Of a stretch of 64,000 nucleotides of DNA, positions 21,479 to 43,377 are shown piece after piece. Made by a program: the position numbers and the translations under genes. The stretch lies in assembly GCA_043819555.1 (NCBI GenBank), contig JBDREQ010000073.1:160001-224000 (forward strand). Reading direction: 5' to 3'. Under the pieces are notes generated by a model. That model saw only the letters and a program-made list of their open reading frames with translations, made no database searches and had not been told where the DNA came from. Source of the stretch: Candidatus Zixiibacteriota bacterium (GTDB taxonomy: Bacteria > Zixibacteria > MSB-5A5 > GN15 > JAAZOE01). Each line of letters starts with the position of its first letter. The first letter of the stretch is position 1.

Positions 21479-22177
21479 TTAGAATCTGTTAATTTTGATT
21501 GGAATTGTAAGCTGGAATAGTTCTCCGCGATCTATTTCAATGACAATAGCGGCAAAATGCGGCCCATAAGGTAAGTTTTCCCATATCGGTGAAATCTCAA
21601 AATCAATCGTACTATTGCCCTTTAACTCAAAATTAGTTTTAGTGGCGACGAAACCGGAATCGTGATCTATTTTAATTCTAACTATAGCTTTCTCATCGAC
21701 TAAATTTTTCAAAGAGAATTTTTGAGAGTCTTTGCCCACAATAAAAACTGTTGATATTGGATCGATTTTCACAGTTTGAGGAGAACGTCCAATAATTGAG
21801 GCAAAATAGACATGAATTTCAGGAAATGGTTCATAATCGGTCACAATACGAACATCTCGTTGAATTTCTCCCTTGTAGGTTTTAGAGTCAAATTTAACCG
21901 GCAAAATATAAGATTCCTGTGGGGCTATTTTAATTGGTGCACGAGGTACATGGGTACAATCGCAGCCAGGAATCAGTTCTGTAATTGTTATGGTGTCTTC
22001 GTGTGGATTAAACAATGTATAGTGATGGCTCACTATCGCGTCCTGGGGTATTAATCCATATATCCAAACAAATTCTGAAGGCAAAAGGGGAAAGTCATTA
22101 GTATTTAAACTATCATCTGTGCTTCCCATCGAGACTAAAAAAAATCCTAAAAAAGCAATCAGCGTAATTATCCTCAT
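21479..22177 (-). CDS. exported DUF1573 (Ig-like) protein, CxC form
   Basis: Signal peptide MRIITLIAFLGFFL, YGLIPQD..VSHHYTL.N...DTI.I....PGCDCT motif; ATG overlaps upstream TGA (ATGA). Confidence 0.8.
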   Translation of the reverse strand: MRIITLIAFLGFFLVSMGSTDDSLNTNDFPLLPSEFVWIYGLIPQDAIVSHHYTLFNPHEDTITITELIPGCDCTHVPRAPIKIAPQESYILPVKFDSKTYKGEIQRDVRIVTDYEPFPEIHVYFASIIGRSPQTVKIDPISTVFIVGKDSQKFSLKNLVDEKAIVRIKIDHDSGFVATKTNFELKGNSTIDFEISPIWENLPYGPHFAAIVIEIDRGELFQLTIPIKINRF

Positions 22178-23166
22178 TTCACAGTCGTCTCCTCGATTGT
22201 AAATCCATGACTTATCATCCACTCATCTGAGAAACATTTCGAAAGGTATCGAATCGCTGAATCAGCGAAGATTACCACAATTAAGTCATTGGGAGTTAAA
22301 TCTTTGGCAATGTTTAGTGCTGCATAAACAGCCGTTCCTGAAGAACCGCCGGCCAGGACGCCAAATCGCTTGGTTATCATTCGGGCCGTGGAAAATGATT
22401 GCTCATCATTTACCGAGATTACTTCGTCAATAACATTCGGGTCAAGCGCCTTGGTTACTTTATCCGAACCGATCCCTTCCACCAAATAAGTTTGTGATTC
22501 ATGTACTTTGCCGGTTTTAATGTAATCTGCAAACATGGAACCGGTTGGGTCAACGGCGATTATTTTTACATTGCTATTTTGTTCTTTAAGATACTGCCCA
22601 ATGCCTGAGACGGTTCCCCCGGTCCCAATTCCACCAATAAAATGCGTGATTCTCCCTTCGGTTTGCTTCCAGATTTCAGGCCCCGTGCTATGATAATGAG
22701 CTCTGATATTATCGGGATTGTCGTACTGATTAAATAGAAAGTAACCCTTTTCCAACGCCAGACTACGAGCCAATTGATAGCAACTCCTTGGATCATCCCA
22801 TGCAGCTTCCGTAGGGGTGCGAATTACCTCTGCACCCAGAGCCCTGATGAGATCCACTTTTTCCTGGCTCGTTTTTTCCGGCGTAGTAAAGACTGCCTTC
22901 AGATCATAAGCGGCGGCCAGCATGGCGACAGCAACCCCGGTGTTTCCGGAAGTATTGTCAATTATGGTATCGCCCTTTTTCAATCGCCCATCTTTGAGAG
23001 CCACCTCAATAATGAATTTTGCCAAACGATCCTTAACCGAACCGCCGGGATTCAAATATTCCAATTTGGCCAGTATTTTCGGTCCCGGATTTTGTTTGTC
23101 ATAAAACGGCAATTCAATTAAAGGAGTGTTGCCAATCAATTCTGAAATTCTATTTGGAAACTTCAT
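22174..23166 (-). CDS. PLP-dependent cysteine synthase / cystathionine beta-synthase family enzyme
   Basis: IGNTPL, KLEYLNPGGSVKDR (PLP Lys), TSGNTG, NQYDNP.N, GTGGT, VEGIG, RYLSK (CBS-like). Confidence 0.92.
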   Translation of the reverse strand: MKFPNRISELIGNTPLIELPFYDKQNPGPKILAKLEYLNPGGSVKDRLAKFIIEVALKDGRLKKGDTIIDNTSGNTGVAVAMLAAAYDLKAVFTTPEKTSQEKVDLIRALGAEVIRTPTEAAWDDPRSCYQLARSLALEKGYFLFNQYDNPDNIRAHYHSTGPEIWKQTEGRITHFIGGIGTGGTVSGIGQYLKEQNSNVKIIAVDPTGSMFADYIKTGKVHESQTYLVEGIGSDKVTKALDPNVIDEVISVNDEQSFSTARMITKRFGVLAGGSSGTAVYAALNIAKDLTPNDLIVVIFADSAIRYLSKCFSDEWMISHGFTIEETTVK

Positions 23167-37936: not shown

Positions 37937-39367
37937 ATGGTACGATTCAATATGATTCTATCCATTGCGATTTTAGCACTGGTAAATATTTCCGGAGCGA
38001 CTGGCAATTCTATGACGTTTATCACTGATTATGCTTCTTTTGCCGATGTGGCGGAAATGCGGCCCTACATTGAAATATATTGCGAGCTAAATCGCGACGA
38101 GTTAGGTTTTATCGGTTCTGATACGAGCGATTATCTATATGCCGGTGTTTATCTCTCGGCGATTGCGTATGATGAATCAGGCGATCCGCAGGATTCTGCG
38201 TCGACCTATTTTCTTAGCCGGGTAAAAAACCGCGAAGAGAGCCAAAAACGAGGGATACAGCTTTTTGATTTATTGGGTCTGCATTTGGCGCCCGGGCGCT
38301 ATCGAATTATATGTTCGGCCATTGATAATGTCTCCAAAAAATCCAGCCAGAATACAATTGTTGCCGAAATTCCGGATTATTTTTTACCGGGCCTGAGATG
38401 CAGTGATCTGCAGGTGGCATTTGAGATACACTCATTTAATGTTGATGATGATTCTCCTGTTAATAAAAGATTAATTAAACAGGACCGGTTAATTATTCCA
38501 AATCCGACCGGTCAATATCAGATCCACCTGAACAAACATATTTGGGTGTATGCCGAGCTCTACGGTCTGTCATTTGAGGGAGAATCCGTTCCTTCCGAAA
38601 ATAAAAAGTTTTTGACAAATTACTCCCTAAAAGACATGAATGGAAATTTAATTCATGATTTCGGCGGGCAGGCCAAGGATAAACCCGGAACTTCAGCTGT
38701 TGTCGTAAACTGTCTGGAACTGCCGTCAATTCCGACAGGGGATTATCATTTGGTTTTTGATGTCACCGATCCGGGCGCCGGTTCAAAAACACTGGCATCC
38801 AAAGCGATTTCAATAATTGCGTCCGAACTGGCGCAAAAGCAATATTCAATTGAAGATATTGAACTGATGAGAAATATAGCGTATTATCATCTTTCGGAGG
38901 CCGAAAAAATCCAGATTGATAAATTATCAATCGAAGGTAAAAGGAATTTTATTCAACAGTTCTGGCGGACACAGGATGATGATCCATCGGACGCGAAAAA
39001 TCCGGTATATGAAGAAGCGGTTCGGAGATTTGTCTATGCCAATGAGATGTTTTCAACGCGAACCGATATCAGGGACGGTTGGACGACCGACCGTGGCCGG
39101 ATTTATATTACTTATGGTCCTTATAATGAATCTGAAACGGTTGAAATGGAGGGCCGCAACTATCCATATCGAAAATGGACCTATTACAATCTGGACGGCC
39201 GCAGAATATTCGTATTTGTCAATGATTTTAAGGCTCAGGTCGGCGATTACCGATTGGTTCATTCGACACATCCAAGGGAAAAATATGATCCCGTTTGGGA
39301 GCAGATTCTGAATGAGAAAGACGATACCAATAGCGATTGGCGTGATACAAGAGACAGTGATTGGTAG
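37937..39367 (+). CDS. exported GWxTD-domain protein
   Basis: FW...D.DP....N.......RF.YANE.F....DGWTTDRGRIYITYGP, W.Y, DYRLVHST. Confidence 0.9.
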   Translation: MVRFNMILSIAILALVNISGATGNSMTFITDYASFADVAEMRPYIEIYCELNRDELGFIGSDTSDYLYAGVYLSAIAYDESGDPQDSASTYFLSRVKNREESQKRGIQLFDLLGLHLAPGRYRIICSAIDNVSKKSSQNTIVAEIPDYFLPGLRCSDLQVAFEIHSFNVDDDSPVNKRLIKQDRLIIPNPTGQYQIHLNKHIWVYAELYGLSFEGESVPSENKKFLTNYSLKDMNGNLIHDFGGQAKDKPGTSAVVVNCLELPSIPTGDYHLVFDVTDPGAGSKTLASKAISIIASELAQKQYSIEDIELMRNIAYYHLSEAEKIQIDKLSIEGKRNFIQQFWRTQDDDPSDAKNPVYEEAVRRFVYANEMFSTRTDIRDGWTTDRGRIYITYGPYNESETVEMEGRNYPYRKWTYYNLDGRRIFVFVNDFKAQVGDYRLVHSTHPREKYDPVWEQILNEKDDTNSDWRDTRDSDW

Positions 39368-39438: not shown

Positions 39439-39798
39439 TTACTTTTCTGATTCAGATTCGCATCCGGAATCGGTATTACATCCTTTGCAATCATGCCCCG
39501 AGGGTTTCTCCTTAGTCGCAACAACAAATCCCCTGCGATCAGGTCCTTCATCTATGAAGTCAATGGCGACGCCACCAAATTGCTGCAACTGCTCCACTAA
39601 AGCAGGATGCATGAATACATCTATGCCGTTGGAATTGAAGTTGCTCAGACTATCTTCGGGCTCATCCAGAGCCAAACCCAAAACGGGTCCGCTTCAACCA
39701 TACCCCATAAAATTGACAAATAAACTTTTCCCCTTGGCGTTATCGGACTGCAAAACTTTATTAAGCTCCACAGATGCAAGTTCTGAGATGGTTACCAT
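39439..39798 (-). CDS. HesB/IscA-like selenoprotein (Sec35, TGA at 39696-39694), 119 aa
   Basis: ATG 39798 with GGGAGA RBS; MVTISELASVELNKVL...FMGYG-U-SGPVLGLALDEP...NGI.VF...CKGC....GC; TGA in frame with the 39439-39681 ORF at the IscA GC position. Confidence 0.88.
39659..39693 (-). other. candidate bacterial SECIS element(s) of HesB-like gene
   Basis: Immediately 3' of UGA: GGACCC-GUUUU-GGGUUU hairpin and GGCUC-UGGAU-GAGCC hairpin. Confidence 0.5.
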
Positions 39799-39898: not shown

Positions 39899-39902
39899 GA
39901 AC

Positions 39903-39932
39903 AAAAAAAAACCGCCGAAAAAATCGGCGGCT
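39903..39932 (-). terminator. intrinsic terminator after DUF1573 selenoprotein gene
   Basis: Minus strand CCGCCGA-TTTTT-TCGGCGG then T9. Confidence 0.85.
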
Positions 39933-39954
39933 GTAATTTGCACTCGGAATTTAT

Positions 39955-40695
39955 TTACTGTGAACCGACACTGCCGGCTTGAGCTTTTTTGCCTCCAATT
40001 AATCGCCTGATTATAGGAACCGAAAAACGCGTCTTGGTCGGATCATTAAGCTCCAATGTGATTGATTTTTCAAAACTCTGATTGAGGTGATCCTCATTGA
40101 CCTTGATTTTGCATTCAGCCGTTTCGCCGGCTTTTACTTCATCCGGCAAATAAATTTGTAAATAACCGTAAGGTTCACTTACGATTTTCAATTCCAAATC
40201 TTCGTCTGAAACATTAGTTACCGTAAATTTGGCCTCATCAACCTCGACTTCACCGGCTCGTGAAACGTAAATCCGATATGGCTTAAACACTACCGGATAA
40301 GTTGAGTCAGGTTGCCGTACAGAATGAACGCTAATGGTAACCCGCTTGGTGGGCGGGCCTTCATTAGTAGAAATGGCGGGGCGTTTACTCGCCGGCCCAA
40401 CTTTTTGACCGGTTGAATAAATAATTTCCAATTCAGTGCTGTCGCCGACAGCAAGCTCCTTCTTTGTTAACGGAGCCTTGGTGCAGCCTCAGCCAGGCTT
40501 TACGTCTAATATCTTCAGCGAATCATCCCCAACCGATTTAATCCAGAATACATGGGATACTTTGCAATCCTGGGGCACAAACCCAAAATCAAATGAGGTT
40601 TCGGGAAGAAGCATTTTCGGCACTGCCATTGCCTGTGAAGATATGAGAGCCATTAAGAGGATTGTTAAGAAAACACTAATCAATAATTTGCGCAT
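39955..40695 (-). CDS. exported DUF1573 selenoprotein (Sec69, TGA at 40491-40489; PG-U-G-C-T), 246 aa
   Basis: ORFs 40489-40695 and 39955-40431 are in frame, joined by 19 sense codons after a single TGA; FDFG.VPQ...VSHVF..K..G...L.I..VKPGUGCT; GGAGGA RBS. Confidence 0.88.
40452..40480 (-). other. candidate bacterial SECIS element of DUF1573 gene
   Basis: CAAGGCUCC-(GUUAACAAAGAA)-GGAGCUUG, loop starts with G 17 nt after UGA. Confidence 0.55.
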
Positions 40696-40738
40696 TTATC
40701 CTCCATTTTAGTATATAAGTCATCAGCCTATTATATTG

Positions 40739-40765
40739 TCATCGGCGCGATAAGTTTCAAATTTA
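40739..40765 (-). promoter_or_regulatory. sigma28/FliA-like promoter of DUF1573 selenoprotein gene
   Basis: Minus strand TAAA-N15-GCCGATGA, 43 nt upstream of ATG. Confidence 0.65.
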
Positions 40766-40788
40766 TCAATTCGAACCAATTTGTTAAA

Positions 40789-40816
40789 AATCTAATACTT
40801 TTCAACCGTATGTCAA
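40789..40816 (-). promoter_or_regulatory. sigma70-like promoter
   Basis: Minus strand TTGACA-N16-TAGATT. Confidence 0.45.
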
Positions 40817-41122: not shown

Positions 41123-41743
41123 ATGGCTGACAAAAACAAACTAACCAGACGGCAACAACAGATACTTGATTTTATCGAGGAAATGGTCAATATCTCCGGT
41201 TTGCCGCCAACTATCAGAGAAATTGGTCTCAAGTTCAGTATTGCCTCAACCAATGGCGTCAGATCGATCCTGAGCGCTCTTGAAAAGAAAGGATATATAC
41301 ATCGCCAAAAATTGGTCTCGCGCGGAATCGAGCTGATCAAGCGATCGCCGATTATGTTTAATCGCATCCCAATTGTCGGCTCAGTTCCGGCCGGATTGCC
41401 AATAACAGCTATTGAGAATCGCGAGGGGGAAATGGCCGTTGATACAGCATTTTTACCCAACGATAAGGTGTTTTGTCTGAGAGTTAAAGGTGAGTCAATG
41501 ATAAACGCCGGTATATTTGATGGAGATTTTGTACTGGTCGATAAAAATATCGATCCCCTGAAAGGCGATATTGTTGTGGCCGTTATCGGCGAAGAAGCAA
41601 CGGTCAAAAAGTTCTATCCGGAGAAAAGACGTGTCCGCCTTGAGCCTCAAAACGAAGCTTTTGGACCAATTATTGTCGATAGTAATACTCCGGGATTCTA
41701 TATCGCCGGCCGGGTTGTGGGATTGATGAGACGCATGAGATAA
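41123..41743 (+). CDS. lexA: SOS repressor LexA
   Basis: LTRRQQQILDFI..G.PPTIREIG, AL.KKGYI.R, VPAG cleavage site, GESM (Ser), ATVKK (Lys). Confidence 0.97.
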   Translation: MADKNKLTRRQQQILDFIEEMVNISGLPPTIREIGLKFSIASTNGVRSILSALEKKGYIHRQKLVSRGIELIKRSPIMFNRIPIVGSVPAGLPITAIENREGEMAVDTAFLPNDKVFCLRVKGESMINAGIFDGDFVLVDKNIDPLKGDIVVAVIGEEATVKKFYPEKRRVRLEPQNEAFGPIIVDSNTPGFYIAGRVVGLMRRMR

Positions 41744-41916
41744 TACAGACATTTTTAGTTCTGTAGCGTTTTTTAAGATAGTTTTTCATTTTCATATTTG
41801 CACTTTTGCAGAATTAAGGCAGTCCAGATGTATAAATATGCCGTGCTTGTAATGCTATTATTAATAATTAGTAAGAGCTTGTTATTAAACTATTACTTTA
41901 TGTGAAGCGAGGGGAT

Positions 41917-42165
41917 ATGTATCAGGATATGGACGAACCTATTGAGGTCGTTGTGTTATTTCAGAACAACAAAATGAAGCCTTCCCGGTTTCGCTGGAAC
42001 GGTACCGTGTACAAAATTGCTGAAGTAACCGGCGACTGGAAAACTGACGTAGGGGCGTATCGTATTCGCCATTTCGCGGTGGTTGATTCGTCGTCTAATT
42101 TTTATCAATTGTCGTACGACGAACGCAAAACCAGTTGGGTTATCAGTAAAATCTGGGTGGAATAG
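41917..42165 (+). CDS. small protein, DUF6504-like, abutting dinB
   Basis: EPIEV.......P..F.W.G..Y.I..V...W......F.V......Y.L.YD.....W.I..IW; GAGGGG RBS before ATG 41917. Confidence 0.7.
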   Translation: MYQDMDEPIEVVVLFQNNKMKPSRFRWNGTVYKIAEVTGDWKTDVGAYRIRHFAVVDSSSNFYQLSYDERKTSWVISKIWVE

Positions 42166-43377
42166 ATGATAGATTATTCTCCTGTCATAGCTCATGTTGA
42201 CATGGACGCGTTTTTCGCAGCTGTGGAAACCCGGAACAATCCCCACTTAAAGGGAAAACCGGTTATTGTCGGTGGCGGAATCGGGCCGCGGGGAGTTGTC
42301 TCAACCTGCTCTTATGAAGCCCGGAAGTATGGTGTCCATTCAGGGATGTCGGCCGTGCAGGCAAGAAAACTATGTCCGAAGGGAATTTTTATATCCGCCG
42401 GATTGAGAGGATATGTGTACGCTTCCGCATATCTCCAGAAAATATATGAATCATATTCGCCTCTGGTGCAGCCAATCAGCATTGACGAAGCTTTCCTCGA
42501 TATAACCGGAGCAGATCGTTTGTACGATGGACCGGTGGAATTGATCCAGAAAATGAAAAATGAAATCTGGGAGAAAATGAAATTGACCTGCTCGGTTGGT
42601 ATTGCCCCGACAAGATATCTGGCCAAACTATCATCGGGAATAAATAAACCGAACGGCTTGACCGTTATGAACCAGGAGAAATTTAAAGAAGTATTTTATT
42701 CCAAACCGGTGGATGCATTGTGGGGCATCGGCGAAAGCACCAAAAAAACACTGGCCCGGGAAAATATCCATACTGTTGCTGACCTGGCCGCGACTGATTC
42801 GAAAATTCTACATAGAATATTCGGTAAGAACGGAGACACCTTATCAATTATGTCCCGTGGAACAGATAACGGTCAAGTTATGCGCTATGAAGATGTGCCT
42901 CACGATAAATCAATGTCGCATGAGACGACTCTTAGAGTAGATATTTATGACCCAACAATTATCAAGGCAACGCTATTGTGGCTTTCGGATAAAGTCGCTC
43001 GAAGGATGCGACGACACGGCTATGTTGGATGTACGATCTCGGTTAAAATTCGTTCATCAGATTTTACTACGATTACAAGAGCCCACACTCTAAGAAGACC
43101 GACTGACCGGTGTGATATTATTTTTCATAATGCCGTAAAGCTGATTCCCAAAGAATACGGGATGAAATATAAAGTACGATTATTGGGGGTACGCGCATCT
43201 CAATTAAAAAAAATCAAATCTTCATCAGGAAATGATATTAATTCCGATTTGATGTCTCAATATGAACTGATTCTCGATAACCGTGAAGAAAAATACAAGA
43301 AACTGACAGGAGCGATGGATAATATCCGCGATAAATACGGTGAGCATATAATTAAGCTGGCCGGTTCGATGCGTTGA
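42166..43377 (+). CDS. dinB: DNA polymerase IV
   Basis: HVDMDAFFAAVE, RGVVSTCSYEAR.YGV.SGM, SIDEAFLD, CSVGIAP..YLAKL.S...KPNG, LWGIG, VRLLGV. Confidence 0.96.
   Translation: MIDYSPVIAHVDMDAFFAAVETRNNPHLKGKPVIVGGGIGPRGVVSTCSYEARKYGVHSGMSAVQARKLCPKGIFISAGLRGYVYASAYLQKIYESYSPLVQPISIDEAFLDITGADRLYDGPVELIQKMKNEIWEKMKLTCSVGIAPTRYLAKLSSGINKPNGLTVMNQEKFKEVFYSKPVDALWGIGESTKKTLARENIHTVADLAATDSKILHRIFGKNGDTLSIMSRGTDNGQVMRYEDVPHDKSMSHETTLRVDIYDPTIIKATLLWLSDKVARRMRRHGYVGCTISVKIRSSDFTTITRAHTLRRPTDRCDIIFHNAVKLIPKEYGMKYKVRLLGVRASQLKKIKSSSGNDINSDLMSQYELILDNREEKYKKLTGAMDNIRDKYGEHIIKLAGSMR

Follow-up and report, generated by a model that had tools for sequence, protein, structure and literature searches.

The 64,000-nucleotide (nt) stretch analysed here, referred to below as the window, covers positions 160,001 to 224,000 of contig JBDREQ010000073.1 (GenBank assembly GCA_043819555.1) from a Candidatus Zixiibacteriota bacterium. 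On its minus strand lies a gene for a DUF1573-domain protein whose reading frame is interrupted by a single in-frame TGA, and this UGA almost certainly encodes selenocysteine (Sec, U). The DUF1573 domain has, to our knowledge, no known function. Features of the gene and its product are as follows.

39955..40695 (-): complete coding sequence of the selenoprotein (246 codons and a TAA stop), with UGA as codon 69
40491..40489 (-): in-frame TGA, U69, in the context ...KILDVKPG-U-G-C-TKAPL...
40483..40485 (-): TGC encoding Cys71, which partners U69 in the U-G-C motif, an invariant column
40624..40695 (-): probable secretory (Sec-type) signal peptide, residues 1-24, reading MRK, a hydrophobic core, and AMA before VPK
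40330..40602 (-): N-terminal DUF1573 / HYDIN-VesB-type immunoglobulin (Ig)-like domain with the U-G-C motif, residues 32-122
40033..40248 (-): second Ig-like domain, free of cysteine (Cys), with a weak DUF1573 match (PF07610, 25.4 bits against a cut-off of 26.1)

The in-frame UGA and its conservation

Under translation table 11 the gene appears as two open reading frames (ORFs) in the same minus-strand frame, 40489..40695 (68 aa) and 39955..40431 (158 aa). Reading TGA as U over 40695..39955 joins them into 246 residues with one recoded codon (U69) and no further stops. The first-pass annotation of this DNA had described a gene split in this way by a lone TGA within PG-U-G-C-T, and the same two ORFs and U69 were recovered. 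Its assignment to DUF1573, with the TGA at the CxC position of the domain, also held. PF07610 (DUF1573) matched the read-through protein at 88.9 bits (E 2.2e-25, cut-off 26.1) over residues 32-122, spanning the UGA, and PF22544, a HYDIN/VesB-type Ig-like family, matched at 57.8 bits.

Conservation was assessed in 41 genomes of the same order and, separately, in 121 genomes of the phylum. Homologues were present in 41/41 genomes of the order, with orthologs colinear over residues 1-245, and the best match carries exactly one TGA in almost every one of them. The TGA occupies the motif codon (PG-U-[G/S]-C-T) in 41 copies from 38 of these genomes. Among the remaining three, the locus fetched from G008 is a C-S-C form, and an unfetched match at a contig end (residues 6-194) with one TGA is also listed for this genome; the sole match in G023 is partial and TGA-bearing, and was not fetched for a position check; and for G035 a TGA-bearing row is absent among those listed. 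Within the phylum sample, 107 of the 121 genomes have a match at E <= 1e-30. Fourteen loci, mostly from other orders, were picked from the TGA-flagged rows of this sample; thirteen carry TGA at the same codon and one has Cys there and its TGA elsewhere. The total thus comes to 54 gene copies from other genomes with TGA at this codon (41 from the order and 13 further).

Paralogs with Cys (TGC or TGT) at codon 69, often in tandem with the Sec form, account for 19 sequences in alignment A2. The source genome has two, with the motifs PGCDCT (247 aa) and PSCGCT (254 aa), located at 21479..22222 (-) of the window and at G000:C73:71375-72139 (L063 1375..2139). Across the 59 members of the protein alignment, column 69 is U or C in every sequence and column 71 is C in every sequence; T72 is likewise among the invariant columns, and a conserved Cys column was not seen elsewhere in this alignment. 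On these alignments the pattern at column 69 is the classical Sec/Cys signature, and the earlier proposal of a selenoprotein, in which the TGA would align with Cys in paralogs and with TGA in relatives, is borne out (59/59 U or C). With the same codon being TGA across genomes and Cys paralogs occurring beside it, sequencing error and recent decay are therefore ruled out.

A quick tree was analysed unrooted for the direction of change between Sec and Cys forms. The two forms are interleaved, the Sec/Cys label needs 12 changes (well-supported branches force at least 8 of these), and several Cys copies are sister to the neighbouring Sec copy of the same genome. The simplest reading of this topology would be that an ancestral Sec form was retained and underwent repeated tandem duplication followed by Sec-to-Cys replacement. 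Many relatives carry tandem arrays of 2-5 paralogs in which Sec and Cys forms are mixed (e.g. loci L024, L044, L050 and L053). A second set of DUF1573 genes was also seen in relatives, with frames of about 370-430 aa, a match confined to the domain and one TGA each (e.g. G012:C57:22992-23294, G018:C2:202916-203191 and G025:C6:50915-51181). Judging from these frames, they may represent a second DUF1573 selenoprotein subfamily; no such gene was found in the window's own genome.

The machinery for Sec decoding, which the first-pass annotation had suggested looking for, is present in full in the source genome (3.35 Mb, 79 contigs, 97% complete). The selA (485.7 bits) and selB (322.4 bits) genes lie side by side, and selD (389.4 bits) and tRNA-Sec (74.3 bits) were likewise found, each of the four scoring above its curated cut-off. 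An ARAGORN scan of the window itself found no tRNA. The selD gene has a single in-frame TGA of its own, and at least three further UGA-bearing selenoprotein genes (selD, Prx-like and HesB-like) occur in the genome. In selD (G000:C63:76059-76982, minus strand) the context is ...VSGAG-U-ASKIG..., and in the Prx-like AhpC/TSA gene (G000:C21:51740-52105, minus strand), which adjoins a Cys-type paralog, it is ...NNTPG-U-NRQ.... Use of TGA as a general sense codon was considered and rejected: 369 of the 1459 ORFs of at least 300 codons in this genome end in TGA, so TGA is an ordinary stop here without general reassignment.

That TGA is a normal stop in the source genome is one of two points that would favour termination at codon 69, whether in a pseudogene, through a sequencing error, or in a locus with two products, an exported peptide of 68 residues and, from an internal start, a protein of 158. 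The other is that public gene callers annotate C-terminal fragments. In the protein collection, full-length matches are Cys forms, and Sec forms are represented by 150-190-residue fragments that cover about 61-70% of the query. Matches bearing a name are called 'DUF1573 domain-containing protein' or 'hypothetical protein'; selenium is mentioned in none of the names of the matches listed. Five such fragments begin at positions aligned to query residues 76-98, just after the UGA, and these caller-chosen starts vary between genomes, which speaks against a genuine internal start. Termination also fits poorly with a TGA at the same codon in 54 copies from several orders, with protein conservation on both sides of it, with a DUF1573 domain and a modelled beta-sandwich that span codon 69, with the UGA-specific RNA structure after the codon that is described below, and with the complete Sec machinery of the genome. 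We regard a true stop as extremely improbable. Public gene calls are cut at the UGA, and Sec forms are for this reason absent from annotation and from proteomic search databases.

RNA hairpins after the UGA

Two abutting hairpins follow the UGA within the coding sequence.

40453..40478 (-): hairpin H1, AGGCUCC/GGAGCUU, 7 base pairs (bp), with a 12-nt loop GUUAACAAAGAA starting with G
40438..40452 (-): hairpin H2, GCUGUC-GGC-GACAGC, 6 bp, with a GGN triloop, directly 3' of H1

A 66-nt stretch here folds at -24.6 kcal/mol (z = -2.47 against shuffles). Alone, H1 folds at -9.3 kcal/mol and H2 at -6.8 kcal/mol, their loops beginning 17 and 42 nt after the UGA, respectively; the two together reach -16.9 kcal/mol. 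The first-pass annotation had noted a single hairpin with a G-starting loop 17 nt after the UGA. This hairpin exists and is H1, but it is the less conserved of the two, and H2 had been overlooked.

The sequence of H2 is identical in 53 of the 54 UGA copies (leaving the GGN loop free, and with U as the last base in 2), its loop is GGN in all 54, and it is kept even where the proteins share only about 40% identity. L092 (G093:C1:64400-65700), with PG-U-GCTTAPLEKDTIIAGDS, is the sole UGA copy that lacks the invariant H2; a second TGA-bearing match is also listed for its genome. The Ala and Val codons within H2 are GCT and GTC in 38/38 order-level Sec forms, giving a third-position entropy of 0, as against 1.78 and 1.62 for the same codons in the Cys paralogs and typically 1.0-1.8 for other codons of the Sec forms themselves. 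Pairing follows the UGA in the same manner: paired cells make up 99.4% of H2 in the 54 UGA copies vs 53.5% in the 19 Cys paralogs, and 80% vs 50% for H1. Two-sided changes were found in H1 at 3 pairs, in 24 cells, where 500 shuffles gave a mean of 12.9 and none reached 24. Mean folding energies of the 38 Sec forms and the 19 Cys forms are -10.0 vs -3.3 kcal/mol for H1 and -6.7 vs -1.1 kcal/mol for H2, although the p-values of this comparison are overstated because the sequences are related.

From these patterns we read the Sec-insertion signal as a putative composite of two stacked hairpins, H1 and H2. Sec-tRNA(Sec) would be delivered to the ribosome at UGA69 by SelB, and the recruiting signal would be the structured RNA of roughly 50 nt after the UGA that is formed by the two abutting hairpins. 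An alternative fold, in which a long-range stem of GGCUGCACC (just after the UGA) with GGUGACAGC encloses H1, is preferred by RNAfold for some copies. It was rejected as the main model, since the invariant GCUGUC arm then stays unpaired and an A at column 6 faces G53 in 17 of 38 copies.

The published model of the bacterial selenocysteine insertion sequence (bacterial SECIS, or bSECIS), as given in the Fig. 2 legend of PMC13188914, specifies a loop of 3-9 nt and an upper stem of 4-16 bp; the same source gives a G in loop position 1 or 2, a spacing of 16-37 nt and a minimum free energy of at most -7.5 kcal/mol. Several features of the element agree with this model. H1 is a stem-loop directly 3' of the UGA inside the coding sequence, and its loop in the window starts with G (GUUAAC...); 31 of 38 H1 loops follow the G rule. 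The H1 spacing of 17-21 nt in order-level copies lies inside the 16-37 range, H1 at -9.3 and H1 with H2 at -16.9 kcal/mol pass the -7.5 threshold, and the 6-bp stem and 3-nt loop of H2 fall within the stem and loop limits.

Other observations on the element weigh against its reading as a Sec-insertion signal. Each hairpin taken singly departs from at least one of the four published constraints. The H1 loop of the window has 12 nt where 3-9 are allowed, although among the 38 order-level UGA copies it has 3-9 nt in 27 and 12 nt in 11, the window's included. H2 has a spacing of 42 nt where 16-37 are allowed and an energy of -6.8 where -7.5 kcal/mol is required. Moreover, H2 never varies and hence offers no covariation support, and its conservation could partly reflect the encoded Ala-Val-Gly-Asp-Ser peptide; a constraint on this peptide would not, however, account for the lack of any synonymous variation at the Ala and Val codons. 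The element thus differs from published bSECIS elements in consisting of two abutting hairpins, of which the invariant one (H2) lies beyond the spacing range. It is a tentative proposal, which we hold to be rather doubtful, that the essential part is the invariant H2 stacked on H1 as a variable spacer hairpin; with its H2 loop at 42 nt, outside 16-37, such a two-hairpin element would be a distinct class of bacterial SECIS. An invariant second hairpin beyond the standard spacing was not found described in the portions of the cited selenoprotein literature consulted.

An Rfam scan of the whole window at gathering scores gave 0 matches, and a scan of 40380..40540 at E up to 10 gave just two chance-level matches on the opposite strand (13.6 and 12.3 bits); no bacterial SECIS family was seen among the matches of either scan. 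The selD gene of the source genome has a 7-bp hairpin with a GGC triloop of the same kind as that of H2, the loop starting at +23 from the first UGA base, and the Prx-like gene has a hairpin whose loop starts at +21.

Read-through of the UGA without Sec has to be weighed against this RNA element. The codon could be decoded by near-cognate insertion of Trp or Cys, or it could serve as a selenium-dependent switch between stop and read-through. In bacteria, Sec decoding of UGA competes with termination, which counts in favour of such a mechanism, and in many relatives the Sec form is accompanied by Cys paralogs, which could be selenium-independent back-ups. However, codon 69 aligns with Cys only, never with Trp or Gly, in the 21 non-UGA homologues, conserved hairpins are needed for Sec decoding and not for leaky read-through, and tRNA-Sec and selB are present in the genome. 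We consider read-through without Sec very improbable, and Sec insertion is the reading followed below.

Predicted protein, family and candidate function

The N-terminus of the protein carries a probable Sec-type signal peptide (residues 1-24), as judged from its residue pattern; it is without a lipobox Cys, and the same N-terminal pattern is common to orthologs. An AlphaFold2 model built from the 59-sequence alignment has a mean predicted local distance difference test score (pLDDT) of 93.7 and a predicted template modelling score (pTM) of 0.84. It comprises a helix at residues 2-20, two beta-sandwiches and a floppy C-terminal tail. The beta-sandwich of the first domain is modelled at a pLDDT of 95-98, the strands of the second domain span residues 154-230, and U69-G-C71 sits in a tight turn after strand 60-66. 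Foldseek groups the model with tandem Ig domains of the PapD/HYDIN-like kind. Among bacterial structures of comparable size the nearest is 2qsv, an uncharacterised protein from Porphyromonas gingivalis; PDB chains searched by sequence gave 0 matches at E up to 1. The C-termini follow a Gly/Ser/Thr/Pro-rich tail and are His-final in 21 of 38 Sec forms (...SGH, ...GSH, ...DKH) and Lys-final in 11, and His-final in just 3 of 21 Cys forms. The protein of the window ends in ...GSQ and its same-genus ortholog in R.

Selenoproteins of this family have been listed before. Table 2 of Zhang and Gladyshev (NAR 2007, PMC1976440) includes OS_HP2, with two selenoprotein sequences from Olavius symbionts. The Global Ocean Sampling (GOS) paper (PLoS Genet 2008, PMC2398784) counts 2 Sec sequences and 354 homologues with Cys for 'OS_HP2, pfam07610, UxC', and 'DUF1573 domain-containing protein, PF07610, motif UGC' appears among prokaryotic selenoprotein families in two reviews (PMC9312934, PMC13188914). 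The gene described here is a new member or subfamily of this family, already predicted in print since 2007. It was called hidden in the first-pass annotation, which is apt for the public gene calls, where it is missed, and not for the family. An NCBIfam scan gave a sole match, NF041425 'OS_HP2 family (seleno)protein'. As it scored 75.6 bits against a curated cut-off of 100 (45.7 bits in a six-frame search of the genome), the protein is a member at the level of the Pfam family and a distinct subfamily at the level of NCBIfam. It shares with the listed OS_HP2/DUF1573 selenoproteins the PF07610 domain, the UGC/UxC motif at the CxC position and the status of a prediction. Features noted here are the two tandem Ig-like domains, the predicted signal peptide of cleavable type, the low-complexity tail, the occurrence throughout a Zixibacteria-type order, where nearly every sampled genome has the gene, and the repeated origin of Cys paralogs. 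Two points count against the overall reading given below: the score under the NF041425 cut-off, and the nature of the published entries, which are, in the portions consulted (PMC1976440, PMC2398784, PMC9312934, PMC13188914), computational predictions.

The gene is intact, with UGA/Cys pairing, a UGA-specific RNA element, Sec machinery in the genome and a confident fold prediction. We consider it very probable that it is an intact selenoprotein gene in which Sec is inserted at UGA69 via SelB and the downstream RNA, and that its product is a probably exported protein of two Ig-like domains. The 246-residue pre-protein would be directed by its N-terminal signal peptide to the Sec translocon and thereby to the periplasm or the cell exterior. 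The mature protein would consist of two tandem Ig-like (PapD/HYDIN-type) beta-sandwich domains, the first of which (DUF1573) would bear U69-G-C71, its only conserved Cys-type residues; the role of spacer or binding module would fall to the second domain and the flexible C-terminal tail. U69 and C71 would cycle between selenol/thiol and an intramolecular selenenylsulfide, forming an extracytoplasmic redox centre of the thiol-disulfide type. Among the functional readings this one, which is drawn from the motif and its conservation, seems somewhat better than an even bet.

Known redox-active CxC motifs include CGC in the tail of Erv2, CPC in Mia40 and the CGC peptides that serve as PDI mimics. 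As in the DUF1573 protein, a single residue, often Gly, stands between two chalcogens, which can form a strained ring. Neither in fold nor in cellular compartment are these proteins related to the DUF1573 protein, where, moreover, Sec occupies the first position.

Binding of a soft metal would be an equally plausible use of a CxC-type pair. The gene would then still encode a genuine selenoprotein, its U-x-C serving as a site for soft metals or metalloids (e.g. Cu(I), Hg, Cd or Zn) within an Ig-like scaffold that is exported; the flexible, often His-final tail would add a ligand or pass the ion on. The protein family has just two conserved Cys-type residues in C-x-C spacing, and the prevalence of terminal His or Lys in the Sec forms, and its rarity for His in the Cys forms, would suit such a role. 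A terminal His is missing, however, from the protein of the window and from its ortholog in the same genus, no metal-handling gene was found among the immediate neighbours scanned, and Sec serves redox catalysis in most known bacterial selenoproteins. We rate metal binding as possible and on the unlikely side. For the redox role, in turn, the neighbouring genes (LexA, DUF6504, DinB, HesB-like and GWxTD) give no pointer to a partner or substrate, and no redox measurement on a DUF1573 protein was found in the portions consulted of the literature naming DUF1573.

Flanking signals, neighbouring genes and significance

Three further features flank the coding sequence on the same strand.

40789..40816 (-): promoter-like site, TTGACA, 16 nt, TAGATT (consensus scan, 10/12 matches)
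40700..40704 (-): Shine-Dalgarno-like GGAGG, 4 nt before the ATG (sequence reading)
39910..39932 (-): intrinsic-terminator-like hairpin and T-run, 23 nt after the TAA, with a 9-bp stem of which 6 pairs are GC

With these, the gene looks like a complete transcription unit, although promoter-like sites are not in excess of shuffles in the region and the TTGACA/TAGATT site is a pattern match only. No public sequencing runs containing 39900..40800 were listed.

Neighbouring genes in the window are the following.

39439..39798 (-): HesB/IscA-like gene, downstream, with a UGA at 39694..39696 (...FMGYG-U-SGP...); 119 residues when read through
37937..39367 (+): GWxTD-domain protein, 476 residues (TIGR04514 76.1 bits, PF20094 38.7 bits)
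41123..43377 (+): a series of three genes pointing away from the selenoprotein gene, namely LexA, DUF6504 (87 aa) and an ORF of 403 residues

HesB-like proteins form an already known selenoprotein family; the gene of the window scored 58.4 bits against NF038090 IscA_HesB_Se (cut-off 85) and 34.3 bits against TIGR01911 HesB_rel_seleno (cut-off 66.35). A HesB-like C-terminal piece is kept beside the DUF1573 gene in 7 loci. In 28 of 42 loci, covering all four families of the order, a GWxTD homologue and the last DUF1573 gene are arranged tail-to-tail, the former always on the opposite strand. A functional link to these neighbours was set aside, with the GWxTD gene always convergent and the HesB-like gene, which has its own promoter-like site, located behind a terminator. 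The 403-residue ORF was taken for a putative DinB-type Y-family polymerase, and the row of LexA, DUF6504 and DinB-type genes resembles an SOS mutagenesis cassette. Of the five neighbouring proteins scanned, none matched a copper-related family.

Selenoproteins that act outside the cytoplasm are uncommon. The public fragments of this probably exported one (150-190 residues) lack both the signal peptide and the active-site motif, and the most conserved predicted exported selenoprotein of the lineage is thus invisible in annotation. With its invariant H2 hairpin, the gene is well suited to testing bacterial SECIS elements outside the standard model. Retention of the Sec form in 38 of the 41 sampled genomes of the order, beside Cys paralogs, offers a good setting in which to ask what U-x-C does; if Cys copies arose repeatedly and the Sec form was kept in nearly every sampled genome, Sec may confer a benefit outside the cell for which Cys is no substitute.

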